A stretch of DNA of 64,000 nucleotides from Bacteroidaceae bacterium. GTDB lineage: Bacteria > Bacillota > Clostridia > TANB77 > CAG-508. Location of the stretch: positions 15,940 to 79,939 of the forward strand of contig CAVFFR010000001.1 of NCBI GenBank assembly GCA_963621875.1, read 5' to 3'. The notes under the pieces were generated by a model. That model was not told the origin of the DNA, did not search any database, and was given only the letters and a program-made list of their open reading frames with translations. Of this stretch, positions 2,726 to 50,700 are shown one piece after another (the stretch's first letter is position 1; each line of letters opens with the position of its first letter). A program made the translations under genes and the position numbers.

Positions 2726-4213
2726 ATGGCAGACATAAAAGAATTAATGCAAGTGCGTAGAGACAAAATGCAAAAAATAAAAGACAGTGGAATAAATGTA
2801 AGACCAGAAAGATATGAAAAAACGCACAGCATAAAAGATGCAAGAAATTTAGAAGATGGAACAAAAAATGTTTCAATAGCAGGGAGAATAATGTCTAAAC
2901 GAAAACTTGGAAAAATCAGTTTCTTAGATTTACAAGATTTACAAGGACATCTTCAATTATGTATAAAAAGAGATGACTTAGGAGAAGAAACATATAAATT
3001 CCTTCATGAGACTGTGGATATAGGAGATTTTATAGGAGTAAAAGGTGACATTTTTACAACAGAAGCAGGAGAGAAAACTTTGCAAGTATATGAATATACA
3101 TTTTTAGGCAAAGCTTTCAGACCACTTCCAGAAAAATTCCACGGAATAACAGATACAGAAGCTGTTTATAGAGAAAGACATTTAGACTTAATAATGAATG
3201 ATGATTCTAAAAAGAGATTTATATTAAGAACACAATTAATAAGATTAATGCGTGAATTTTTAGATAGCCACGGATTCTTAGAAGTTGATACACCAGTTCT
3301 TCAAAATACAGCATCAGGAGCAACAGCAAGACCATTTGTAACGCATCACAATGCTCTAGATATGGATGTATATTTAAGAATATCGCCAGAATTAACATTA
3401 AAAAAATTAATAATTGGTGGTTTTGAACATGTATATGAAATAGCGAGAGATTTCAGAAATGAAGGAATGGACGCAAATCACTTACAAGACTTCACAATGA
3501 TAGAAGGATATAGTGCATATTGGTGTTATAGAGACAATATGAAATTTCTAAGAGAAATGATTATCTATATATTAGACAAATTATTTGATGGAAATTTAAA
3601 ATTGCAATTAGGTGGACAAGAAGTAGACTTTGGCGGAGAATGGCCAGCAGTATCTTTTAGAGATCTAATATTAAAAGATTGTGGAATAGATATTGACAAA
3701 TATCTTACAGCACAAGAGCTTTTAGCAGAAATTAACAAACAAGGAATTAAACTAGAAGCAGACAACTTAGAAAATTTAGGTAGAGGAAATCTAATAGACA
3801 CATTATACAAAAAAGTAAGCAGACCAAAAATAATCAATCCAACATATTTAACAAAACACCCAATAGATTTATCACCACTTGCAAGAAGTAATGATGAAAA
3901 TCCACAAATAACAGATAGATTCCAATTAGTAGTTAATGGACAAGAAATAATAAATGGTTACTCAGAGCTTGTAGATTCAGACGAACAAGAAAAAAGATTA
4001 ATTGAACAAAGTAAGTTAAAAGATCAAGGTGATGACGAAGCCATGAGTATTGATACAGAATACATTAGAGCTATGGAATATGGTATGCCACCAATTTCTG
4101 GTTGGGGACTTGGAATAGACAGATTCCTACAATTCTTAACAAATAGCGACAATATAAGAGATGTAGTGTTGTATCCATTAATGAGACCAAGGGCTTCAGA
4201 AGAAGAAGAATAA
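2726..4213 (+). CDS. lysS: Lysyl-tRNA synthetase (class II).
   Basis: 495 aa. N-terminal OB anticodon-binding domain and class II catalytic core with motifs FRNEG and GxGxGxDR (GWGLGIDR). Strong RBS ggaggt. Confidence 0.9.
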   Translation: MADIKELMQVRRDKMQKIKDSGINVRPERYEKTHSIKDARNLEDGTKNVSIAGRIMSKRKLGKISFLDLQDLQGHLQLCIKRDDLGEETYKFLHETVDIGDFIGVKGDIFTTEAGEKTLQVYEYTFLGKAFRPLPEKFHGITDTEAVYRERHLDLIMNDDSKKRFILRTQLIRLMREFLDSHGFLEVDTPVLQNTASGATARPFVTHHNALDMDVYLRISPELTLKKLIIGGFEHVYEIARDFRNEGMDANHLQDFTMIEGYSAYWCYRDNMKFLREMIIYILDKLFDGNLKLQLGGQEVDFGGEWPAVSFRDLILKDCGIDIDKYLTAQELLAEINKQGIKLEADNLENLGRGNLIDTLYKKVSRPKIINPTYLTKHPIDLSPLARSNDENPQITDRFQLVVNGQEIINGYSELVDSDEQEKRLIEQSKLKDQGDDEAMSIDTEYIRAMEYGMPPISGWGLGIDRFLQFLTNSDNIRDVVLYPLMRPRASEEEE

Positions 4214-6018: not shown

Positions 6019-8211
6019 ATGTCTGAAAATATAAATCACACAATAGAAGAAGTTTTAGAAACGGTAAAAAAATCAAATAGGAGAGCAGACTTAAAATTAA
6101 TAAAAAGAGCGTATGAGTTTGCAAAAAATAAGCATAAAGATCAATTAAGAAGGTCGGGAGAACCTTATATAATTCATCCAATACAAGTTGCATATATTTT
6201 ATCGACACTAGGGTTAGACCATAGCACAATTTGTGCAGCACTTTTACACGATGTTATAGAAGACACAGATGTAACATTAGAAGATATTGCAAAAGAATTT
6301 ACACCAGAAATTGCAGAAATGGTTGATGGTGTTACTAAATTAAGCAAACTAAACTATACAAGCGAACAAGAACAACAAGTAGAGAACTACAGAAAAATGT
6401 TTTTGGCAATGGGTAAAGATATAAGAGTAATACTAATAAAGCTTGCAGATAGACTTCATAATATGAGAACATTAAAATATCTTACAAGAGATAGACAAAT
6501 AGCAAATGCTAGAGAAACTATGGACTTATATGCACCACTTGCAAACAGATTGGGTATGTATTCTCTAAAATGGGAACTTGAAGACTTATCTTTTAAATAT
6601 TTATATCCAGAAGACTATAGAGAACTAGTAGAGGGAATAGATAAAAAAAGAGAAGAAAGACTTAAGTTTATAGACCAAATATTGCAAGAAATAAAAGTAG
6701 AGTTAAAAAAGCAAAAAATAGTTGCCGAAATAACAGGAAGAGCAAAGCACTTGTACAGTATATATAGAAAAATGCAAAGAGATAATAAAACATTGGACCA
6801 AATATATGACTTGTTTGCACTAAGAATAATAGTAAATTCTGTAAAAGATTGCTATGCTGCACTAGGAATTGTACACGAATTATACAATCCGATGCCGGGA
6901 AGGTTTAAAGATTATATATCAGTACCAAAACCAAATATGTATCAATCATTGCACACAACATTAATTGGACCAAAAGGAACACCTTTTGAGGTCCAAATAA
7001 GAACTTGGGATATGCATAGAATTGCTGAATATGGTATTGCAGCACACTGGGCTTACAAAGAAGCGAGTTTCTTAGGTGGCAAAAAAGCAAATGTAGCAGT
7101 AGAAGAAGATAAACTATCTTGGCTTAGAGAAACATTAGAATGGCAAAAAGATATGCAAGATCCACAAGAATTCTTAAACACATTAAAAACAGAATTATTC
7201 GAAGACGAGGTATATGTATTTACTCCAAAAGGGAAAATATTAGTTCTTCCAAATGGAGCAACACCAATAGATTTTGCGTATGCGATACACGCTGAAATAG
7301 GCAATCATATGACAGGTTGCAAAATCAATAGCAAAATGATGCCAATAGTAACAAAGTTAAAAAATGGTGACATTGTAGAAATAGTTACATCAGATAAATC
7401 AAAAGGACCAAGTAGAGATTGGCTAAAATTCATAAAAAGTAGTACAGCCAAAACTCGTATACAGCAGTGGTTTAAAAAGAATGAAAGAGAAGAAAACATT
7501 ACAAAAGGAAAAGAAACTTTGGAAAGAGAAGTAAAAAGGATAGGAATGAGCTATCAAGAACTATTTAAACCAGAGTTTGTAGAAGTAGCAGTAAATAGAT
7601 ACAAGTTTAATTCTTTAGATGATATGTATGCTAGTGTTGGATTTGGAACAATAACAGCAGGAAAAATAGTTTCAAGAATACTAGAAGAATATAGAAAAGT
7701 TAATAAAGAAGAAAATATTGAAGAAAAAATTGAACAATTAACAAAACCAAAAGAAGACAAACCATCGTCAAGTGGTATAATTGTAAAAGGAATAGATAAT
7801 TGTTTAGTAAAACTTTCAAAATGCTGTAATCCAGTACCAGGAGATGAAATTGTAGGATATATAACAAAAGGCAGAGGGGTATCTGTACATAGAAAAGATT
7901 GCAAAAATGTAAAAGACTTATTTGAAGAAGAAAGCAGAATGATAGATGTATCGTGGTATACAGATCAACCATCAAGCTACAATGTTGATATAGTTTTATT
8001 CTCTAATGACAGAAACGGTTTACTAGCAGATATAATTTCTACTATTGCAACCGAAAAAGCTCCATTGATTTCTATAACATCTAAAGTTTCAAAAGAGAGA
8101 ATTGTAATAACTGAACTTACCATAGAAGTTAGTAATATTACACAATTAAACAATATGTTAAAATCTTTGAGAAAAATAGACAGTGTATACGATGTAAAGA
8201 GAAACAAATAA
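6019..8211 (+). CDS. relA: Bifunctional (p)ppGpp synthetase/hydrolase RelA/SpoT (Rel).
   Basis: 730 aa. HD hydrolase domain (HDVIEDT), RelA_SpoT synthetase domain, TGS and C-terminal ACT domain. RBS aggaggtg. Confidence 0.9.
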   Translation: MSENINHTIEEVLETVKKSNRRADLKLIKRAYEFAKNKHKDQLRRSGEPYIIHPIQVAYILSTLGLDHSTICAALLHDVIEDTDVTLEDIAKEFTPEIAEMVDGVTKLSKLNYTSEQEQQVENYRKMFLAMGKDIRVILIKLADRLHNMRTLKYLTRDRQIANARETMDLYAPLANRLGMYSLKWELEDLSFKYLYPEDYRELVEGIDKKREERLKFIDQILQEIKVELKKQKIVAEITGRAKHLYSIYRKMQRDNKTLDQIYDLFALRIIVNSVKDCYAALGIVHELYNPMPGRFKDYISVPKPNMYQSLHTTLIGPKGTPFEVQIRTWDMHRIAEYGIAAHWAYKEASFLGGKKANVAVEEDKLSWLRETLEWQKDMQDPQEFLNTLKTELFEDEVYVFTPKGKILVLPNGATPIDFAYAIHAEIGNHMTGCKINSKMMPIVTKLKNGDIVEIVTSDKSKGPSRDWLKFIKSSTAKTRIQQWFKKNEREENITKGKETLEREVKRIGMSYQELFKPEFVEVAVNRYKFNSLDDMYASVGFGTITAGKIVSRILEEYRKVNKEENIEEKIEQLTKPKEDKPSSSGIIVKGIDNCLVKLSKCCNPVPGDEIVGYITKGRGVSVHRKDCKNVKDLFEEESRMIDVSWYTDQPSSYNVDIVLFSNDRNGLLADIISTIATEKAPLISITSKVSKERIVITELTIEVSNITQLNNMLKSLRKIDSVYDVKRNK

Positions 8212-30656: not shown

Positions 30657-31118
30657 ATGCCTTTTATAGAGATAATCACAGATACAAAAAGTCAAGTGCA
30701 ATTGAATAAAAGTATAAAAAAAGAACAAGTAAATAATTGTGAAATCTTGTATATAAAAGAAAAAAATATAGACAACATAAAAAATATAAAATTAGAAACA
30801 TTAGTCTTAAATAGAGAGATAGAGGATATATCAAAAATACAAAAGATAATGAACAATGCAAAAAATGTAATAATAAATTTCGACCTCAATCAAATAGAAA
30901 AGCAAGATAATTTTATTTCTTATGGCTATAATTCAAAATGTGATATTACAATATCAAGTATTAATGACGAAGATGTATTGATATATATTCAAAAAGAAAT
31001 TACTAGTATTTTTGGTAGAAAAATAGAGCCACAAGAAGTAAAAGTTAAAACGAAACCAGATATAAATATATACAATATTATGATAATAATAGCCTTAAAT
31101 GTGCTATATGCTAGATAA
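30657..31118 (+). CDS. Hypothetical protein, K/N/I-rich, with a C-terminal hydrophobic segment.
   Basis: RBS aaaggagag. No recognisable motif. Confidence 0.35.
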   Translation: MPFIEIITDTKSQVQLNKSIKKEQVNNCEILYIKEKNIDNIKNIKLETLVLNREIEDISKIQKIMNNAKNVIINFDLNQIEKQDNFISYGYNSKCDITISSINDEDVLIYIQKEITSIFGRKIEPQEVKVKTKPDINIYNIMIIIALNVLYAR

Positions 31119-31164
31119 AATTTAAGTTTTTTGTAAACTTTTTTTAAAAAATCAACTTTTTATG

Positions 31165-31193
31165 TAGACAAAACCAAAAAATGGTAGTATAAT
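31165..31193 (+). promoter_or_regulatory. Putative sigma-A promoter for the SSB-like gene.
   Basis: TAGACA, a 17-nt spacer, then TATAAT. Confidence 0.4.
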
Positions 31194-31263
31194 AAGTAAT
31201 GTAGGTTAGAAAAAAACTAAAAAATACAAATACTTTAAAAAAAGTAAGAGGAGGAAATTAAAG

Positions 31264-31962
31264 TTGGATACAGTTTATTTAGAGAATAACCACATAGTAT
31301 TAGTGGGAAAAGTAACTAGCGACAAAAAGTTTAGCCACGAAATATATGGAGAAAAATTCTATGTATTTGATTTAAGCGTTCCACGTTTAAGTGGCAATTC
31401 TGATATTATACCAGTAACAATATCAGAGAGATTAATGGTAAACGGAGAATTACCATTAGAAACAAAAGTAACAGTAGAAGGTCAATTTAGATCTTATAAC
31501 AGTTATGGAGAGGGCAAAAACAGATTAGTATTAACAGTATTTGCAAAAAATGTAACATTATTAGAAGATCAAGAAAGTGAAATAGAAGCAAAAAAAGATT
31601 TCGTTTCAAATGAAGTAACATTAATTGGTTATATCTGCAAAAAGCCAATTTACAGACAAACCCCATTTGGAAGAGAAATTTCAGACATATTATTAGCAGT
31701 TAATAGAGCTTACAATAAATCAGACTACATACCTTGTATAGCTTGGGGAAGAACAGCAAGATTCTGTGAGAATATGGAAGTTGGTACAGAGGTTAAAATC
31801 GTTGGTCGTGTTCAATCTAGACAATATGAGAAAAAGTATGAAGATGGAACAGTAGAGAATAAAGTTGCATACGAAGTTTCAGTTGGTAGCTTAGAAGTTG
31901 TTAACCAAGACGGCGAAGAAAAGAGAGAAGAAACAGAACAAGAAAATCAAGAGGCTATATAA
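31264..31962 (+). CDS. Single-stranded DNA-binding-like protein with two tandem OB folds and no acidic C-terminal tip. Apparent TTG start.
   Basis: Two SSB-like OB modules (HIVLVGKVT...VTISERL...VEGQFRSY and VTLIGYICK...CIAWGRTA...VGRVQSRQYE). RBS gaggagga. The acidic C-terminus ends ...QEAI, not DDDIPF. Confidence 0.55.
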   Translation: MDTVYLENNHIVLVGKVTSDKKFSHEIYGEKFYVFDLSVPRLSGNSDIIPVTISERLMVNGELPLETKVTVEGQFRSYNSYGEGKNRLVLTVFAKNVTLLEDQESEIEAKKDFVSNEVTLIGYICKKPIYRQTPFGREISDILLAVNRAYNKSDYIPCIAWGRTARFCENMEVGTEVKIVGRVQSRQYEKKYEDGTVENKVAYEVSVGSLEVVNQDGEEKREETEQENQEAI

Positions 31963-32004
31963 TTAGATAAAATGAAATAAATAAATTCCTTTAAGATAAG
32001 AAAG

Positions 32005-32040
32005 AAGTGTTTTTACAAAAGTAAAAGCACTTTTTTCTTT
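32005..32040 (+). terminator. Rho-independent terminator after the SSB-like gene.
   Basis: Stem gtgtttttac/gtaaaagcac with an aaaa loop, followed by a T6 run. Confidence 0.55.
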
Positions 32041-32097
32041 TAATAAACTGGATTAATATAAAGAATTACAGCATATCAGAAATATTCTACTGACAAA

Positions 32098-32130
32098 TTT
32101 CGCCCAATAGGGACGCCCTATTGGGCGAAA
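32098..32130. repeat. 33-nt GC-rich perfect palindrome (15-bp arms, 3-nt centre).
   Basis: tttcgcccaataggg-acg-ccctattgggcgaaa. It stands out against AT-rich surroundings at the left edge of the higher-GC block. Confidence 0.8.
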
Positions 32131-32200
32131 GGCTAGTATTAAAATTTTAGTAAAGAGAAATCCTACTAAAAATTTATACTATCGCAACTCTTGTTAAAAA

Positions 32201-32229
32201 TTGACATAATATCGTAAGAATGGTATAAT
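32201..32229 (+). promoter_or_regulatory. Consensus sigma-A promoter with an extended -10 element.
   Basis: TTGACA (32201-06), an exact 17-nt spacer, then tgGTATAAT (TG-extended -10, 32221-29). RBS gggagga 6 nt before ATG 32268. Confidence 0.7.
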
Positions 32230-32267
32230 ATAAGTGGATTAATTTTTTTCAAAAGGGAGGACTTTTC

Positions 32268-33278
32268 ATGATTACGACGAAACGGTGCATTTTGATTGCA
32301 GCAAAATCTGAGTTCTTAGAAAGATTTGAGGCAATTGAATTTGCAAACATTTCTGAAATTCAGAATGTATGGAAGAAAAACAAGACTCCGGTTATTTCAG
32401 ATAAACTTGTAGCAAACAGATTAGAAGGATATAATGTCCTGAATGTTCCGGAAGAAATCATCGGCAATGTGGAAGAATTTACTGATTTCTGCCATAAGAA
32501 TGGTTTTGAATGTGGTGAATTCATCAGCGGAATCACTTATGACACTGCACAGGAAAGATGCTTTATGTGTGAGTTGGCGAGACATCGTGGAATGGGTGAT
32601 TTGGTTAGATACAACCAGTATGTTGAAAAAACTGTTGACTGTATCATTTACGAGACGGAAAACTTCTATGTAACTTCAGAGCTGGGAGCTCTGAAATTGG
32701 GCTATCTTATGATTGTTCCTAAAGAGCATATCCTTTCGGTAGCTCAGTTTCCAGAAAGACTTTTTGGAGAATATCAGGAAGTAAAGGAAGATACTGAGAA
32801 GATTCTGAAGGAGGCCTTTGGAGATTCTAATGTAACCTTTTGGGAGCATGGATCTGGTCCAAGTGGCAAGACTTCGCATAAGAAATCCATTGTTCATGCA
32901 CATACCCATGTTGTAGTAGACTTTAAACTGAAAGAAAAGTATCAGGATATGGTACAGCTTCGGCCGTGTTTTGATATTACTGAAGCCAAAAATGTTCATT
33001 ACTTTTCTTATCAGGAAGGAAGCAAAGGACAGTTGATGATTTCGATGGATCCAAGTGTTTATATTCAGCGCCAATATCCTCGCCAGATTATGGCTGATGA
33101 ATTAGGTTTTGCACCTGATCAGTATAACTGGAGGAAAGTGAAGTTTGAAGAAAACACAGATGCAACTTTGTTCCATCTGTTCTGTATGCTTAATGAATGC
33201 ACTGACGACAGAATCAAGGAACGTACTCGTGGATTCGTGGATGGATTCAATAAAAGAAACATCCAGGAAGATGAGTAA
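32268..33278 (+). CDS. HIT (histidine triad) superfamily nucleotide hydrolase/transferase with unrecognised ~95-aa N-terminal and ~110-aa C-terminal extensions. The gene has foreign composition.
   Basis: CxxC start of the HIT domain (CFMCE), an LMIVPKEHI block and the His triad SIVHAHTHVVV. Codon usage is rich in ccg/ctg/cgt/ggc, unlike its neighbours. Confidence 0.6.
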   Translation: MITTKRCILIAAKSEFLERFEAIEFANISEIQNVWKKNKTPVISDKLVANRLEGYNVLNVPEEIIGNVEEFTDFCHKNGFECGEFISGITYDTAQERCFMCELARHRGMGDLVRYNQYVEKTVDCIIYETENFYVTSELGALKLGYLMIVPKEHILSVAQFPERLFGEYQEVKEDTEKILKEAFGDSNVTFWEHGSGPSGKTSHKKSIVHAHTHVVVDFKLKEKYQDMVQLRPCFDITEAKNVHYFSYQEGSKGQLMISMDPSVYIQRQYPRQIMADELGFAPDQYNWRKVKFEENTDATLFHLFCMLNECTDDRIKERTRGFVDGFNKRNIQEDE

Positions 33279-33285
33279 ATCCCTA

Positions 33286-33319
33286 CAAACGGCTATCTTT
33301 AATAAGATGGCCGTTTGTA
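33286..33319 (+). terminator. Putative terminator after the HIT gene.
   Basis: 13-bp stem acaaacggctatc/gatggccgtttgt with 1 mismatch and an 8-nt loop. Weak T tail. Confidence 0.4.
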
Positions 33320-33396
33320 TGTATATTATAAAAAAGAAAATGTTGTAAAAGGAGAAAGAATATATTATAATATAAGAAAAAATAAAGGAGAACCAT

Positions 33397-34548
33397 ATGA
33401 ATAACGAAATAGTATTACCAAATTATGAACATTGCATACTAAATACAATAACATCCATATTAAAATATTACAATGTAGAAACAGAACACAAATCACTAGA
33501 AGTTCTAGACAAAGAACTAAAAAAGAAATACAGAAATGTTGTATTTATAGTACTAGACGGAATGGGTGAACATATATTAAACAGAATGTCGCCAGAAGGA
33601 TACTTTAATGCAAACAAAGTAGATTGTGTAACATCTGTATATCCGTCAACAACAACTGCGGCACTTACAACTTATTATTCAGGTCGTCCACCATATGAAA
33701 CAGGATGGATTGCATGGTCACAATATTTTAAAGAATATGGAAGAGCTATGGATATGCTTAAACATACAGAATCATATATGGGAGAAAAATATCCAAAAGC
33801 AAACTTAGATGTGTTTGCAGAAGTCGTTGATTATGAAACAATATTTGAAAAAATAGAAAAGTCATCTTTAAACATAAAGGCTTATGAAATAGAACCTACA
33901 TATGCAGATAAAAGAGCAAAAAGAAGTATTAGGGCAGATTCGATAGAAGAAATTGTTGATTCTATTGAAATGCTTTGTAAAAATCCAGATGAAAAATTCG
34001 TGTTTGCTTATTGTGACTGTCCAGACGGACTATTACACAAATATGGAGCAAGCTCAGATGAAGCAAGAGAATTTATATTAGACGCGGAAAATAGAATTCA
34101 AAAATTAGAACAAAAACTTTCAGATGATACAATAATTATAATATCAGCAGACCATGGCCATAAAGATATAGAAAAAGCATACACTTTATTAGACTATCCA
34201 GAAATACAAGAATGCTTAATAATGCCACCATCTTTAGAATCAAGAGTTGTAACATTTTGGGTAAAAGAAAATATGAAAAAAGAGTTTGAAGAAAGATTTA
34301 ACAAAGTATTTAAGAACGAATTTTGGTTAATGACAAGAGAAGAATTTCTAGATAAACATTTCTTAGGCTATGGAAAAAAACATCCTAAAATAGAAGAATT
34401 CGTTGGAAATTATATTGCTTTATCAACAGCAGGAAGCATAATCAGACTAGAAACATTTTTAGCAGAAGGCAAAAAAGTAAAACAATCTACACATTGTGGA
34501 CTAAGCAAAGACGAGATGGAAGTTCCAGTAATAATATTGAAAAAATAA
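33397..34548 (+). CDS. Alkaline-phosphatase-superfamily protein (nucleotide pyrophosphatase/phosphodiesterase- or PglZ-like).
   Basis: Metal-site motifs VLDGMG and IIISADHGH. 383 aa. Confidence 0.5.
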   Translation: MNNEIVLPNYEHCILNTITSILKYYNVETEHKSLEVLDKELKKKYRNVVFIVLDGMGEHILNRMSPEGYFNANKVDCVTSVYPSTTTAALTTYYSGRPPYETGWIAWSQYFKEYGRAMDMLKHTESYMGEKYPKANLDVFAEVVDYETIFEKIEKSSLNIKAYEIEPTYADKRAKRSIRADSIEEIVDSIEMLCKNPDEKFVFAYCDCPDGLLHKYGASSDEAREFILDAENRIQKLEQKLSDDTIIIISADHGHKDIEKAYTLLDYPEIQECLIMPPSLESRVVTFWVKENMKKEFEERFNKVFKNEFWLMTREEFLDKHFLGYGKKHPKIEEFVGNYIALSTAGSIIRLETFLAEGKKVKQSTHCGLSKDEMEVPVIILKK

Positions 34549-34573
34549 AAAACGAAAATAATGGAATATAAAT

Positions 34574-34604
34574 AAAAAATAGCAAACAAATTGCTATTTT
34601 TTTT
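34574..34604. terminator. Bidirectional terminator between 33397..34548 (+) and a small convergent ORF (-).
   Basis: aaaaaatagcaa-acaaa-ttgctatttttttt. A-run and T-run on either side of a short hairpin. Confidence 0.45.
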
Positions 34605-34746
34605 CTTCGGGAATTATAACATTCTTTTTAGTATTGGTATCTTCTTCTGGATTTGCAATGTTTAGATTATCATAAACAGGGGAAATATCTAAATCTTTGC
34701 CGTTTCCAGAAACTATTTCGATGTCCTTGTTCTCATCATTATACAT
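34594..34746 (-). CDS. 50-aa acidic small protein (not in the ORF track).
   Basis: RBS ggagggt 8 nt before the ATG at 34746. Protein MYNDENKDIEIVSGNGKDLDISPVYDNLNIANPEEDTNTKKNVIIPEEKK. Read directly from the sequence. Confidence 0.25.
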   Translation of the reverse strand: MYNDENKDIEIVSGNGKDLDISPVYDNLNIANPEEDTNTKKNVIIPEEKK

Positions 34747-34893
34747 AAAATACCCTCCACACTATTGAATTTATATATATGTTATCACAAAATTTTATAA
34801 TATTCAAGAAATAACGCTATAATTCATTGAAATTATAGTACTTTTTGTGTATAATAATTATGACAAAAAATAACAAGATGGAGAACAATTTTA

Positions 34894-35589
34894 ATGAGAA
34901 TTCGATTCAAAAAGTGGGCAAGACCAGAGCTAGAAGCAAGCAAATTCTATATAAACAATCCAGAAGAATATAAAGGGAAATGGACAAGCTTATTTAACAA
35001 TAATCCAATATATGTGGAATTGGGGTGCGGAAAAGGAGGATTTATTTCTAAGCTGGCTAGCCAAAATAAAAAAATAAATTATATTGCAATAGACCTAGTA
35101 GATGCAATGTTAGGACTTGCAAAAAGAAATATAGAACAAACTTACCAAGAGATAAAAACAGAAATAGACAATATTTATATTACAAGATATGATATTGACA
35201 GAATACTAAACATATTTAATTCTGAAGATAAAATAAAAAGAATATACATAAATTTTTGTAATCCCTGGCCAAGAGGAAAACATCATAAAAAAAGATTAAC
35301 ACATACAAGACAATTGGAAAAATATAAAACTTTTTTAATAGATAATGGTAAAATCTACTTTAAAACAGATGATGATAATTTGTTTGTTGATAGTTTAGGA
35401 TATTTTAAAGAAGCAGGTTTTGAGCTAAAAAAATTAACTTATGACCTAGCAAACGAAGAAAACTTTTGGCAGGATCAAGTAAATATTGAAACAGAGCATG
35501 AAAATATGTTTAAAGAACAAGGAATCAAAATTAAAGCTCTTATAGCAGTAAAGGAGAAAAATAATGTTCAATTACGAAGTGGAAAATAA
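34894..35589 (+). CDS. trmB: tRNA (guanine46-N7)-methyltransferase.
   Basis: SAM motif VELGCGKGGF and conserved TrmB C-terminal half. 231 aa. Confidence 0.8.
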   Translation: MRIRFKKWARPELEASKFYINNPEEYKGKWTSLFNNNPIYVELGCGKGGFISKLASQNKKINYIAIDLVDAMLGLAKRNIEQTYQEIKTEIDNIYITRYDIDRILNIFNSEDKIKRIYINFCNPWPRGKHHKKRLTHTRQLEKYKTFLIDNGKIYFKTDDDNLFVDSLGYFKEAGFELKKLTYDLANEENFWQDQVNIETEHENMFKEQGIKIKALIAVKEKNNVQLRSGK

Positions 35590-44483: not shown

Positions 44484-44606
44484 ATGGTAGAAATACAGGC
44501 GTTAATCGCAACAATATACATATTATATTATTCATTAATTGGAGTAACTATCATAGCAATGGCCTTTATTATAGCATTAGCAATAATTCTGAGCAAGAGC
44601 GAATAA
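44484..44606 (+). CDS. 40-aa hydrophobic micro-protein (not in the ORF track).
   Basis: Strong RBS aaggaggtgagg 7 nt before the ATG. Single TM (MVEIQALIATIYILYYSLIGVTIIAMAFIIALAIILSKSE). A hairpin follows the stop. Confidence 0.35.
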   Translation: MVEIQALIATIYILYYSLIGVTIIAMAFIIALAIILSKSE

Positions 44607-44616
44607 ACCAATAAAA

Positions 44617-44650
44617 AAACACATCTGTTAACTTTGACGAGTCAGATGTG
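44617..44650 (+). terminator. Putative terminator after the micro-ORF.
   Basis: Stem acacatctg/cagatgtgt with a long loop. A second hairpin aaaccac-tttc-gtggttt lies at ~44667-44690 and may serve spoIIID on the other strand. Confidence 0.3.
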
Positions 44651-44746
44651 TTAAAACATTTTACTTGGCAAACCACTTTCGTGGTTTCTCATTTTCTATT
44701 TCTATTATACACGTATAAGTAAACTTTGTCAATCATTTAGAAAATT

Positions 44747-45001
44747 TTATACATGATGACTATATTTTAATTTTGTCGCTTGACCTCCTCTAATATGTCT
44801 TTCTGCTTTGTTTTCGTCTAAGATAATTCTGACCTCGGAAGCGAGAGCAGGATTTATTTTTAATAATCGTTCACTAACATCCTTGTGTACTGTAGATTTA
44901 GAAATTCCGTATTTTTTAGCTGCACCTCTAACCGTATCTTTTGAATCTATAATATATTGAGCTAATTTTACAGCTCGTTCTTCAATTGAAACTCCAATCA
45001 T
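44747..45001 (-). CDS. spoIIID: Stage III sporulation transcription regulator SpoIIID.
   Basis: 84 aa. HTH region GISKSTVHKDVSERL and C-terminal ENKAERHIRGGQATKLKY. Start chosen to match SpoIIID length. ORF-track start 45046. Confidence 0.85.
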   Translation of the reverse strand: MIGVSIEERAVKLAQYIIDSKDTVRGAAKKYGISKSTVHKDVSERLLKINPALASEVRIILDENKAERHIRGGQATKLKYSHHV

Positions 45002-47705: not shown

Positions 47706-50700
47706 ATGAGAAAAACTAGACAGAAAAAGCGAGCTATAATAAGCAAAAAAAGAGTATTTATTTTAATATGCTTAATAATGTTGACAATTTTCGAAATAAT
47801 AGCTTTTAGAGATTCAAGAGCAAATAAAGTAATAGAAATATCAGTCAACATTATTGATAGTGCTTCTCGTTTAGAAGATAAGCAAATGACATTGAATGCT
47901 GTAAATTCTAACGGAAAGGACTATTATTTAGCGTTGCCAGAATATGTCGACAATAAGAGAATAGAAGGGTATATAATAGAAGAAACTCAGTATGAGGAAA
48001 TAATAGAAGATAATAATGAAGATCAAGTTAGCGAAACAGACAACAATGTTATAACAGCTGAGGAAAATATAATAGAAGACTCTATAAACAATAAAGCAAC
48101 TAATGCAAATGAAGAAATAAATACAATTGACGAAGATAAAGCAAATACAGAAGAAACTATACAAGAAGAAAAAAAAGTAATAAAAACAAAAACAGAAAAA
48201 AGCATACAACCTAATGAAAGCATTATTCTAACAAAAGATGAAATTCAAAACAAAACAATTACAATAAAAGCTGTATATGATAGTAAAGAAAAAGATGGCA
48301 CTATTTTATATAATCAAGAAATTAATGCAGAGATAGTAGAAAATCAAGAAATATCAACTAAACACAATATAAAAATTGATGGTTATATGCCGATAGATGC
48401 AACTGCTAAAGCAACAATAGTTACAAGAGATGACATACAAGATAAAATTGATGATATGCTAACAGATAAGGTTTCGTTAAGAGTAGCATATGATATAAAA
48501 ATTATATATAACGAAGCAGAATTTGAGCCAGAAGAATTTGATACAGATGTTAAAGTAACCATAGTTGGAATGGAAGAAATAAATACTAGAAAGCAAAAAT
48601 ACAAAGTAATACACATAGATTCAGAAAATACTGTTGAAGAAATAAAGACAGTGGAATCTTTAGAAGACACAGTTTCTTTTACAGCAAAAGAATTTTCGAC
48701 TTATGCAGTATTACTGGAGAGTGATATAAGTACAACATCATTATCTGCTAATATGGATTCCGCAAATGTATGGGAAGGAAATACAGCAACAGGATTTAGA
48801 TTCGGAGAAGGAACAGCAAGTTACCCATATCTAATCTCTAGCGGAGAAGAACTTTCATATTTGGCAACTCAAGTAAATAGTGGAACTTCATATGAAGGAC
48901 AATATTTCTCTTTAATTAGAGATATAAACTTAAATGATAAAGAATGGACTCCAATAGGTAATTACAATAATTCATTTAAAGGAACTTTTAATGGAGAAGG
49001 ACATACCATAGCAAATGCAACAATTACTCTGCCAAGTGATATACCAACATCAGTATCTTCATATGGACTTTTTGGAAGTATAGGAGGAGGAAATAGCAAA
49101 ACAACAATAAAGAATTTGCAAATAGAAAATATTACTATTTCAATAACTGCAACTGGAACAACAGGAAACAATACTACTGCAAAAGGCTATAACATTGGAA
49201 TTGTAACAGGAACTATGTTTAATAACTCCGCTGTAAAAAATGTTATAATTAATAGTGGAAGTATAGAAGATACAAGTGCAATAATATTAAGAACAAATGA
49301 TACACAGATATTTGTAGGAGGAATAGCAGGACTTGCAGTTAATAGTACAAGCTCAACAGAAGATCCAGGAGAAGGAAAAAGATATGAAATAGAAAACTGT
49401 TATTCAAATGTAAATGTAGATTTAGCAATACGACCTTATTCTATTTTGTTTATCGGCTCACAATATGCAACAGCTGGTCAGTATGCTGCAGGTGGAATAA
49501 TTGGTGGAATAAAAAACCAAGCTGTTTGGCCACAAAATTGTTTATATAAAGGCAATCTAAATGCAGCTAACGCATTCACTGGCCCTATATTTGCATATGT
49601 AAGAGGAAATAGTACTATAGGAAATACTAATAATTTTAGAACAATTTGGTACGGATATGATGCGGGAACAATAGCAGATGCAATAAATAGTTATTTTACA
49701 TCATATAGTACAAATTCAAAATCTTTTACAACAAGTGTAACAAGCCAAAGTTCAGATCAGTATGTTAGTAGCAGTTATATGGGATATGTGCAGGGTGTAA
49801 ATAAAGGAATATATACAAGCAATACTAACTCAATGTTAAGCAATTTTAATAACTATGTATCACAAAACGCAGAAGAAGACTATTTAAACTGGTATTTTGA
49901 CGATGCAACAGACTCATATTACTTTACGCCAGTATTAACAGCAGAAATAATAAAGAATGTGCCAGAATATGTAGTGCAAGTCAATGATGGACTAGCTACG
50001 GGAAATTACACATATAAATGGTATATAGATGGTCAATTAGATGAAAGTGTAACAACTAATACTATGACAAAACCATCTTCGTGGGAAACAGAGTATAATG
50101 TTGAAGTTTTAGTTAGCAATGGAATTCAATATACAATGCTTAGCTTTACTATTCCACTATACGAAATACATATCTCATTTGAATATGCAAATAGTATACT
50201 TACAGGAAATCTGGAAGGAACAGGCTTACAAGATCCCAACTTTAATTTAGCCGATTATACATATCAATGGTATGAACTTGACATATCAGGAGAAGAAACA
50301 TTATTAGAAGGGAAAACGCAGAATAATATTACAGATTTAGAAAATGGTCTAGACTATAAACTAGTTGCTACAAATAATAAGTATGAATATATGTCAGTAG
50401 AAAACACATATACATCTACTACGAGAACTGTTATTTACTGTAGTTACAGTAGTGGTAGTGATTACAATGATGGATATACTCCACAGACACCAGTAAAGAC
50501 TTTATCAACTGCCTATGGAAAATTTTCTACATCAACAACGAGAGATGAAAATGTAATAGTGCTAATGGGGACCTATTCTGATTCAAGTAGTTGGTGGGGA
50601 AGTAGTAGATACTTAGACAGTGCCACTTCTACAACATATAATCGAAATGTTACAATAACAGGAAAATATGGAGGGCAAGATTATAGCGGAGAACTATATT

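Follow-up and report, generated by a model that had tools for sequence, protein, structure and literature searches.

A bacterial CwfJ-type HIT protein and its linkage to an NPP-type phosphodiesterase gene in uncultured gut Clostridia

Why does a comparatively GC-rich gene for a HIT-superfamily protein stand in an AT-rich genome of a gut bacterium, and what might its product do there? The question is raised by a stretch of 64,000 nucleotides of contig CAVFFR010000001.1 (assembly GCA_963621875.1, positions 15,940 to 79,939 of the forward strand; Bacteroidaceae bacterium, GTDB lineage Bacillota, Clostridia, TANB77, CAG-508), hereafter called the window. On its plus strand, an open reading frame (ORF) at 32268..33278 encodes a HIT protein of 336 aa. 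The GC content of this gene is 0.386, compared with 0.283 for the whole window. Its GC at third codon positions (GC3) reaches 0.365, while the 47 other window ORFs of at least 150 aa, which served as composition reference, average about 0.17 with a runner-up at 0.236. The original prediction, made from the sequence of the window, had noted this higher-GC block with different codon choices and had interpreted it as a horizontally acquired single-gene insertion. The compositional difference is real. Sister loci place the window in an uncultured lineage of gut Clostridia near 'Clostridium sp. CAG:780' and MAGs of the Candidatus Scatovivens type. The present results show that the protein, a putative enzyme, has a CwfJ-type HIT fold and is an uncharacterised bacterial variant of the HIT superfamily, that its gene is linked to that of a phosphodiesterase, and that this gene is accessory without having been acquired recently.

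CwfJ-type architecture of the HIT protein

The AlphaFold 2 (AF2) model of the HIT protein, obtained with a predicted local distance difference test score (pLDDT) of 92.7 and a predicted template modelling score (pTM) of 0.90, contains both the alpha+beta fold of HIT proteins and the two-domain C-terminal fold of CWF19. Three domains follow each other along the chain (Table 1). The N-terminal domain, common to all five subtypes of the family, is modelled as four beta-alpha units (pLDDT about 85-96) and has no Pfam assignment. It is followed by the HIT core, whose motif reads H210-A-H212-T-H214-V-V. The original prediction had recognised this core and had left both extensions unassigned; this still holds for the N-terminal ~95 residues, while the C-terminal extension is a probable CwfJ_C_2-like domain.

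In an alignment of 63 homologues of the window's subtype, no variation is seen at C98, C101, H154, H194, H204, H212 and H214, and at least 90% of the sequences have H210. A separate comparison across the five divergent subtypes showed that C98, C101, H154, the triad H210/H212/H214 and the N-terminal pair N38-K39 are invariant, together with two C-terminal motifs (Y265..R268-Q269..R272-Q273 and N287-W288-R289). The Gly/Ser/Lys-rich loop that precedes the triad (E193-H-G-S-G-P-S-G...S-H-K-K-S207) had been described as an unusual insert. It is indeed ~5 residues longer than in canonical HITs and is near-fully invariant within the subtype. The family comprises 249 matches of ~338 aa full length, nearly all of them unnamed, the best being 92% identical to the window protein. 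Short relatives (~200-230 aa) match residues ~96-300 only and hence do not possess the N-terminal domain.

Searched as a single sequence, the protein matched Pfam HIT (PF01230) with E=0.008 and 17.2 bits, compared with a cutoff of 21.5. Matches to CwfJ_C_1 (E=0.081, residues 125-199) and CwfJ_C_2 (E=0.053, residues 235-296) were also below the Pfam threshold. All of these matches are collinear, those to HIT, DcpS_C and CwfJ_C_1 falling within residues ~121-219, upstream of the one to CwfJ_C_2. With the family profile, the Fhit fusion protein 1ems was matched at E=8.7e-7 and eight more HIT proteins at E<0.05. The same profile gave a weak collinear match to human CWF19L1 (E=0.054-0.082, about 170 residues), in which the bacterial RQxPRQV is paired with LQFGREV and NWR with DWR. 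A match to PHROG 23000, a PHROG family of unknown function, was obtained with E=1.4e-7.

At the structural level, the closest relatives of the HIT protein are the eukaryotic spliceosomal CWF19/Drn1 proteins. The matches to CWF19 proteins span 178-211 residues; for plain HIT proteins the scores do not exceed 11.5, over about 100-127 residues. The sub-threshold, collinear CwfJ_C_1 (PF04677) and CwfJ_C_2 (PF04676) matches follow the domain order of the C-terminal module of the CWF19 family, which includes S. pombe Cwf19, human CWF19L2 and CWF19L1/yeast Drn1. Drn1 in addition has the same CxxC...HxH...R...W layout, made up in the window protein of C98, C101, H212, H214, R268, R272 and W288. Residues C269, C272, H366, R459 and W474 of the Drn1 CwfJ region are required in vivo for lariat-intron turnover (Garrey et al., PMC4105757). 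In the human intron lariat spliceosome structure, the CWF19L2 module, termed "functionally mysterious" by the authors, is made up of two domains that form a clamp on the lariat junction and also bind the duplex of branch site and U2 (Zhang et al., PMC6461851).

The window protein differs from the CWF19 family in being bacterial, with no spliceosome to serve, in its N-terminal domain and in the marginal level of sequence similarity (E 0.05-0.08). It also differs from human CWF19L1 in its catalytic motif: the full HxHxH is not seen at the aligned position of the human protein, whereas the bacterial triad is intact. Catalysis by the bacterial proteins is therefore plausible. The CwfJ domains of CWF19L1, which is a human ataxia gene, and of CWF19L2 and Drn1 are conserved spliceosome-associated modules without known biochemical activity, and no description of catalysis by CwfJ domains was found in the papers searched. 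A small bacterial protein of this type, its HIT triad intact and its enzyme partner defined, would offer an experimentally tractable route to the chemistry of the CwfJ fold.

Other HIT proteins were also compared. Canonical members (Hint, Fhit, bacterial 1y23 and 3oj7) share the HxHxHxx motif, the N-terminal CxxC zinc motif and a Gly-rich loop before the triad. They are, however, about 110-150 aa long, and the window protein adds to this core two extra conserved domains, the 5-residue-longer invariant loop and an obligate-looking phosphoesterase neighbour. The short bacterial CwfJ_C_1-type HITs match the HIT core and the C-terminal domain with E 1e-11 to 1e-16, and several of them exceed the Pfam CwfJ_C_1 threshold; unlike the window protein, they have no N-terminal domain and some are fused to other enzymes. 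A deep search for the genomic context of one short relative, P0190, retrieved nothing but P0190 itself, on a contig of 940 nt. The fusion partners seen in distant CwfJ-type HITs are P-loop kinases, NUDIX, S-adenosylmethionine (SAM) methyltransferase, radical SAM or a second HIT domain. DcpS and aprataxin, which act on nucleic-acid 5' ends, are likewise multi-domain HIT enzymes of similar overall size, and an analogy with their nucleic-acid-end substrates is plausible. Their structural scores are nevertheless far below those of the CWF19 proteins, and the window protein has neither the N-terminal swap domain of DcpS nor the zinc finger of aprataxin.

Linkage of the HIT gene to a phosphodiesterase gene

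The gene that follows the HIT gene in the window encodes an NPP-type phosphodiesterase of the alkaline-phosphatase superfamily, hereafter AP. AP matches PF01663 (E=4e-16), has the NPP fold and keeps the full bimetallo active site as well as the Thr nucleophile. Residues D54, T85-T87, D207/D210, H214, D252, H253, H255 and H366 are invariant. Linkage was followed from both sides, in 80 sister loci fetched with the AP protein as query, 79 of which were scored, and in a HIT-centred metagenome scan of 80 loci, of which 62 were informative and 18 lay on contigs too short to tell.

The closest HIT homologues outside the immediate clade (P0002, P0005, P0007, P0012, P0076 and P0111) are all followed by a PF01663 gene, in the midst of unrelated housekeeping flanks. 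In the metagenome scan, AP was located within 600 bp of the HIT gene in 57 loci and at 854 bp in one; it was absent from four loci despite adequate flanks on both sides. The two genes were found in co-directional and in divergent arrangements, and also convergently at distances of 53-99 bp. Viewed from AP, a HIT-like gene is adjacent in 40 of the 79 sister loci. The synteny with SSB, MetRS and TrmB is gone beyond the two closest genomes, while the HIT-AP pairing persists in about half of the loci and outlasts the turnover of its neighbours (SSB, PHP, GuaA, PFK, f3 and RpoC contexts, f3 being one of our gene families) as well as changes of side and strand. The HIT gene had been proposed to be a stand-alone gene; these data contradict that proposal, since AP adjoins it in nearly every locus whatever the surrounding genes.

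In two of the four loci that have no AP neighbour, the HIT gene is paired with a non-homologous phosphoesterase. At L107/L108, a His_Phos_1 histidine-phosphatase gene lies 42 bp upstream on the same strand (L107 3626-4210), and at L163 a YmdB metallophosphoesterase gene is divergently oriented (L163 3596-4369). Genes for a PHP phosphoesterase, a metallo-beta-lactamase (MBL)-fold hydrolase, a T4 gp30.3-like protein and a thymidylate-kinase-like (Tmk-like) P-loop protein are recurrent neighbours in other loci, all of them absent from the window. The common theme of the neighbours and of the fusions is nucleotide and phosphoester chemistry.

Taken together, the conserved triad and the linkage lead us to favour, with a probability of about one half, a two-enzyme module in which the HIT protein and AP process a nucleotide-linked phosphoester, the HIT protein being a CwfJ-type, variable accessory partner. 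H212 would be the likely nucleophile and would form a covalent nucleoside monophosphate (NMP)-histidine intermediate at the alpha-phosphate of a nucleotide-linked substrate, so that the HIT enzyme would remove or transfer NMP. AP would then cleave the remaining phosphodiester, pyrophosphate or phosphomonoester, or might instead supply the substrate. Candidate substrates are a dinucleoside polyphosphate and a nucleotide-capped, adenylylated, branched or otherwise nucleotidylated nucleic-acid end or molecule. These nucleic-acid-end and dinucleotide candidates are put forward because of the relatedness to the RNA-binding CWF19 proteins, the analogies with DcpS and aprataxin, and the NUDIX, kinase and methyltransferase fusions. 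A nucleotide-processing function, as guessed from the sequence in the original prediction, appears reasonable.

Association with a phosphoesterase is a further trait shared with Drn1, whose CwfJ module is fused to a pseudo-metallophosphoesterase domain and cooperates with Dbr1, a phosphodiesterase; in the window's family the phosphoesterase is instead encoded next door, as an NPP, a YmdB or a histidine phosphatase. The parallel with the Drn1-Dbr1 partnership is by analogy and suggestive only. A literature search for bacterial CwfJ or for HIT plus alkaline-phosphatase pairings retrieved no description. A new two-component module, widespread in uncultured gut Clostridia, an abundant group, is delineated by the persistent pairing with a phosphoesterase, by the substitution of the partner with non-homologous ones and by a slot that stays empty or holds one of the five subtypes.

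Some features of AP and of the extended neighbourhood deserve mention. Residues 88-136 of AP (about 33658-33804), located after the Thr nucleophile motif, are modelled with pLDDT below 50 in an otherwise good model. The segment includes the invariant stretch W104-IAWSQYFKEYG-115, and the model suggests a family-specific lid or interface without counterpart in known NPP structures. At L097, whose HIT homologue is 77% identical, an MBL-fold hydrolase gene stands between the PHP and HIT genes and a gp30.3-like gene comes after AP (2877-3482 and 6175-6783). The MBL-fold protein has a weak, sub-threshold match to Pfam Anti-Pycsar_Apyc1, and genes of the gp30.3-like type (family f21, E=1.3e-25) are also found repeatedly in the vicinity of AP at other loci. 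The Tmk-like protein (~213-248 aa) is encoded, along with a PHP gene, beside HIT-AP at L023, L051, L061, L082, L088, L105 and L106. GC3 is persistently raised in this family too (0.32-0.54; at least 0.30 in 5/5 members), and the Tmk-like gene may be part of this nucleotide-centred module in an extended form.

The accessory slot, the age of the HIT gene and its codon usage

The slot beside AP is occupied by five divergent HIT subtypes in either orientation and is sometimes empty. On the tree of AP proteins, the HIT state requires at least 20 presence/absence changes, or 25 when the subtype is counted. Loci L016 and L094 illustrate this turnover: their AP proteins are 93% identical, and their HIT proteins, encoded on opposite strands, are 25% identical. 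In one syntenic lineage, f3 and AP are separated by only 7-53 bp when the slot is empty, an operon-like arrangement, and by a higher-GC segment of 1.3-1.4 kb, in either orientation, when it is filled. A dedicated AP promoter and a leader are common to the filled loci and missing from the empty ones. The "insertion" of the original prediction is thus correct in the sense of an accessory gene that is polymorphic relative to some sister genomes, and does not stand in the sense of a recent transfer.

The AP promoter of filled loci, TTGCAA-17-TATAAT, is conserved upstream of AP at L016 (5794-6000), L083, L029 and L094. Within the leader, the ribosome-binding site is overlapped by a short hairpin (AAGTAT...ATACTT). 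In empty loci, AP starts 7-29 bp after f3, with no such promoter or leader-hairpin element.

Exchange at a shared position could also mean that the two genes are uncoupled. The place beside AP would then be a permissive or inherited slot, exchanged via flanking homology, and the HIT protein a general Hint/Fhit-like hydrolase with a housekeeping role on diadenosine tetraphosphate (Ap4A) or NMP-amidates. Filled loci of different subtypes do share their flanks and the AP promoter frame, which is compatible with allelic exchange. In the window each gene has its own promoter with a terminator in between, and the best sequence-level matches of the HIT protein are ordinary HIT hydrolases. A passive slot does not explain, however, why the pairing survives full neighbour turnover and changes of side and strand, nor why the partner is substituted by other phosphoesterases. 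Two extra conserved domains and a CwfJ-type architecture also fit poorly with a generic Hint role, and we consider this explanation unlikely.

The HIT gene is present in the closest sister loci, L006, L007 and L099, and in L001-3. Singleton substitutions were polarised by four-taxon parsimony (window, L006, L099 and L007), which yields modest counts from a single clade. In the HIT gene, 36 synonymous changes were GC→AT and 41 were AT→GC, with 30 non-synonymous changes; the corresponding numbers for AP were 25, 42 and 27. The two genes resemble each other in the total of synonymous changes (77 and 67) as well as in the proportion of non-synonymous to synonymous ones. A decay of the HIT gene toward a GC3 of ~0.15 would predict an excess of GC→AT changes of ~3.8 to 1, quite different from the 36 vs 41 observed, and from the HIT counts GC3 would settle at an equilibrium of about 0.44. 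The window's own lineage alone drifts mildly to AT (18 changes vs 8). The balance of the synonymous changes and their AP-like amount indicate that, within the clade, the HIT gene has been inherited together with AP under purifying selection and that its GC-rich codons are maintained. Hence, the HIT gene is an accessory gene without recent acquisition, a variable partner of AP across a clade of gut Clostridia, in disagreement with the horizontal acquisition initially proposed, if this is taken as a recent event.

The high GC3 had been taken as a sign of transfer. It turned out to be a property of the whole family in exclusively AT-rich hosts. GC3 is higher in HIT than in AP in 51/51 paired loci, with a mean excess of 0.21, and the GC content of the HIT gene exceeds that of its flanks in 65/65 metagenome loci, whose hosts have GC contents of 0.24-0.35. 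No moderate-GC donor lineage was found among the six homologue look-ups and the 65 metagenome loci. GC3 is raised uniformly, in every decile of the gene, and the shift is general: A at third positions falls from 0.51 to 0.29 while C and G increase, with CTG, CAG, ATC and AAG becoming commoner. The HIT gene is thus a counter-example to the shortcut by which atypical GC means recent horizontal transfer. An anomaly this stable, at apparent equilibrium and restricted to AT-rich hosts, points to gene-specific selection or to a biased synonymous-site process, coupled to a conserved promoter.

Two ideas connected with this codon usage were rejected. High expression is ruled out by RpoC, ribosomal protein L9 and SecA, whose GC3 in the same loci is 0.10-0.17. 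In eight loci (L001-L003, L006, L007, L024, L025 and L036), antisense ORFs of 344-383 aa are open over the HIT gene, which contains no TTA, CTA or TCA codon in these loci, as compared with ~35 in the adjacent AP gene. A real antisense gene is also rejected: the open frame is attributed to a general loss of A-ending codons, including TTA, CTA and TCA, and in the window it is broken by five such codons. The complete absence of TTA, CTA and TCA in two independent lineages is nonetheless more extreme than a simple expectation.

These results bear directly on the explanation from which the analysis started, namely a stand-alone, recently transferred single-gene cassette built for high constitutive expression and acting in immunity, defence or the degradation of nucleotide signals (peptidyl-nucleotide antibiotics, phage signals). 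The atypical composition, the consensus promoter, the empty and filled states of the slot and the variable presence of the gene, with subtypes replaced between genomes as close as L016 and L094 and at least 20 changes on the AP tree, would all be expected of such a cassette. An Apyc1-like MBL-fold gene adjoins HIT at L097, and the PADLOC "HIT family" model of ThsC is matched marginally by the window protein (E=0.031) and by the L016 subtype (E=0.0016). On the other hand, the gene is linked to AP, occurs in all the closest sisters, has co-diverged with AP and shows no AT-ward decay, and its neighbours are housekeeping genes. No GC-matching donor host exists among the 65 loci, the surroundings of the gene showed neither mobility genes nor tRNA genes nor flanking repeats, and the palindrome upstream of it belongs to a strain-specific indel (see below). 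No significant match to the defence-system models of PADLOC-DB 2.0 was obtained for HIT, and AP, the PHP protein and the gp30.3-like protein match nothing there; a search of 2.9 million viral contigs returned no relatives of the HIT protein. A recent defence cassette is accordingly the least probable of the explanations considered here, and the defence role finds no backing beyond the marginal HIT model match. A phage origin was also considered and is not supported, with 0 relatives in the viral contigs and only generic HIT and DcpS matches in a viral structure library.

A different type of conflict system could be envisaged, with the HIT protein as "writer" and AP as "eraser". The former would be a GalT-like nucleotidyl transferase that modifies a protein, a nucleic acid or a small molecule via His-NMP, and AP would reverse or detoxify the modification. 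Such a dependence would explain the asymmetry of the linkage, HIT being rarely found without a phosphoesterase and the phosphoesterase often alone: HIT is nearly always beside AP, and only about half of the AP genes have a HIT gene. AP is replaceable by an analogous phosphoesterase (His_Phos_1 or YmdB), several deeply divergent subtypes replace each other between close genomes, and the HIT gene has its own strong promoter. NPP-type phosphodiesterases can moreover strip AMP off adenylylated proteins, a classical use of snake-venom phosphodiesterase. A trans-acting partner, however, would not need adjacency. The native composition of AP and its operon-like arrangement with f3 in empty loci suggest that AP has a housekeeping role of its own. 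The proportions of non-synonymous to synonymous singletons, 30/77 for HIT and 27/67 for AP, correspond to ordinary purifying selection in both genes, with no short-range arms-race signature. A writer and eraser pair therefore seems doubtful to us.

The two-enzyme phosphoester-processing module remains our preferred reading, and several observations weigh against it. The single HIT sequence falls below the Pfam thresholds for HIT, CwfJ_C_1 and CwfJ_C_2, and its sequence-level tie to CWF19 is weak (E 0.05-0.08). The eukaryotic CwfJ module is itself without demonstrated catalysis (PMC6461851). AP occurs without a HIT gene in 39/79 sister loci and therefore does not need it. The window has a terminator between the two genes and a separate promoter before each, and gives no sign of their co-transcription; adjacency could in part reflect inheritance of the slot rather than biochemical coupling. 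Finally, the two-enzyme model leaves the maintained GC-rich codon usage unaccounted for.

The codon usage is addressed by a bolder version, in which the HIT protein would be the first recognisable catalytic prokaryotic CWF19/Drn1 CwfJ module. Together with the phosphodiesterase, it would process an unusual nucleic-acid linkage or reversibly nucleotidylate a target, and codons and promoter would be a selected expression feature. The linkage could be a 2'-5' branch (group II introns, retron-like elements), an NpnN- or NAD-type 5' cap or a 5'-adenylylated end. The codons might make translation independent of NNA-reading tRNAs or might protect the mRNA, and would not be a remnant of transfer. We judge this proposal improbable.

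Expression signals, the upstream indel and other features of the window

The coordinates of the features around the HIT gene are given in Table 1.

Table 1. Features at the HIT-AP locus (window coordinates).
Feature	Position	Strand	Description
Upstream SSB-like gene	31264..31962	+	232 aa, two-OB-fold PRK05813-type; NCBIfam NF004476, E=1.9e-94
SSB-gene terminator-like hairpin and T-run	32005..32041	+	Arms AAGTGTTTTTAC / GTAAAAGCACTT, then TTTTTCTTTT; read directly from the sequence
Strain-specific ~84-bp indel between SSB terminator and HIT promoter	32097..32180	.	Outside the conserved gene unit
Sigma-70-type consensus promoter of the HIT gene	32201..32229	+	TTGACA-17-TG-n-TATAAT, 12/12 with upstream TG
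Shine-Dalgarno sequence of the HIT gene	32255..32261	+	GGGAGGA, 6 nt before ATG; invariant in sister-locus alignment
N-terminal family-specific alpha/beta domain, residues ~1-95	32268..32552	+	From AF2 model; invariant N38-K39
HIT core, residues ~96-225	32553..32942	+	CxxC (C98, C101), H154, Gly-rich loop E193-S207, triad H210-x-H212-x-H214
Predicted CwfJ_C_2-like C-terminal domain, residues ~226-336 and stop codon	32943..33278	+	Invariant Y265, R268-Q269, R272-Q273, N287-W288-R289
Intrinsic terminator of the HIT gene	33284..33319	+	16-pair stem, then T-rich tail
AP promoter-like site	33343..33371	+	TTGTAA-17-TATAAT, 10/12
AP/NPP partner gene	33397..34548	+	383 aa, cytosolic NPP-type (alkaline-phosphatase superfamily) phosphodiesterase; GC3 0.17, native composition

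The perfect promoter with its upstream TG and the gggagga ribosome-binding site, both described in the original prediction, were recovered by our analysis. The promoter is one of just two perfect TTGACA-17-TATAAT sites within the 64-kb window. According to the intergenic alignment, it is kept along with the gene at L006, L007, L003 and L005, and promoter, ribosome-binding site and HIT gene are conserved as a unit even when the upstream gene is a different one (PHP phosphoesterase). A survey of 39 non-redundant family members found a 12/12 promoter upstream of 16 of them and at least 11/12 in 25; among 559 control genes, the respective proportions were 4% and 14%. The consensus promoter is thus a family trait of the HIT genes. 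From the sequence signals, the HIT gene is predicted to be transcribed on its own from this promoter and stopped by its own terminator.

Between the SSB-like gene and this promoter lie the two repeats with which the higher-GC block was said to begin. Both exist: a perfect GC-rich palindrome with 15-nt arms (32098-32130), unique in the window where 0 are expected by chance, and an AT-rich inverted repeat with 13-nt arms that are 92% complementary (32140-32176). They do not, however, belong to the gene unit. The closest sister locus, L006 (HIT protein 96% identical), lacks the ~84-bp stretch that contains them, as do L007 and L003, and a search of 178 fetched loci in addition to the window found the palindrome in 0/178 loci. 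The stretch is therefore a strain-specific indel and not a cassette boundary, which rules out the two repeats as cassette ends or as an attachment site. It folds into a pair of strong neighbouring hairpins (-39 kcal/mol, z = -7.6), one of them the perfect GC-rich stem, and a match to the Rfam SpF22 small RNA on its minus strand is sub-threshold (E=0.12). A miniature mobile element, a terminator/insulator and a small RNA are candidate identities for the stretch.

An Rfam scan of 31000-35000 gave no significant match. The hairpin that follows the SSB-like gene was missed by the consensus scan because it has few G-C pairs, and the SSB-like gene itself starts with a TTG codon in the ORF list. The second perfect TTGACA-17-TATAAT site of the window is located on the minus strand at 44704-44732, and GC skew and AT skew are locally reversed around it (44501-45000). 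Further downstream, at 47706-56039, the window contains a very long ORF of 2777 aa with an unusually high GC content at second codon positions (0.39).

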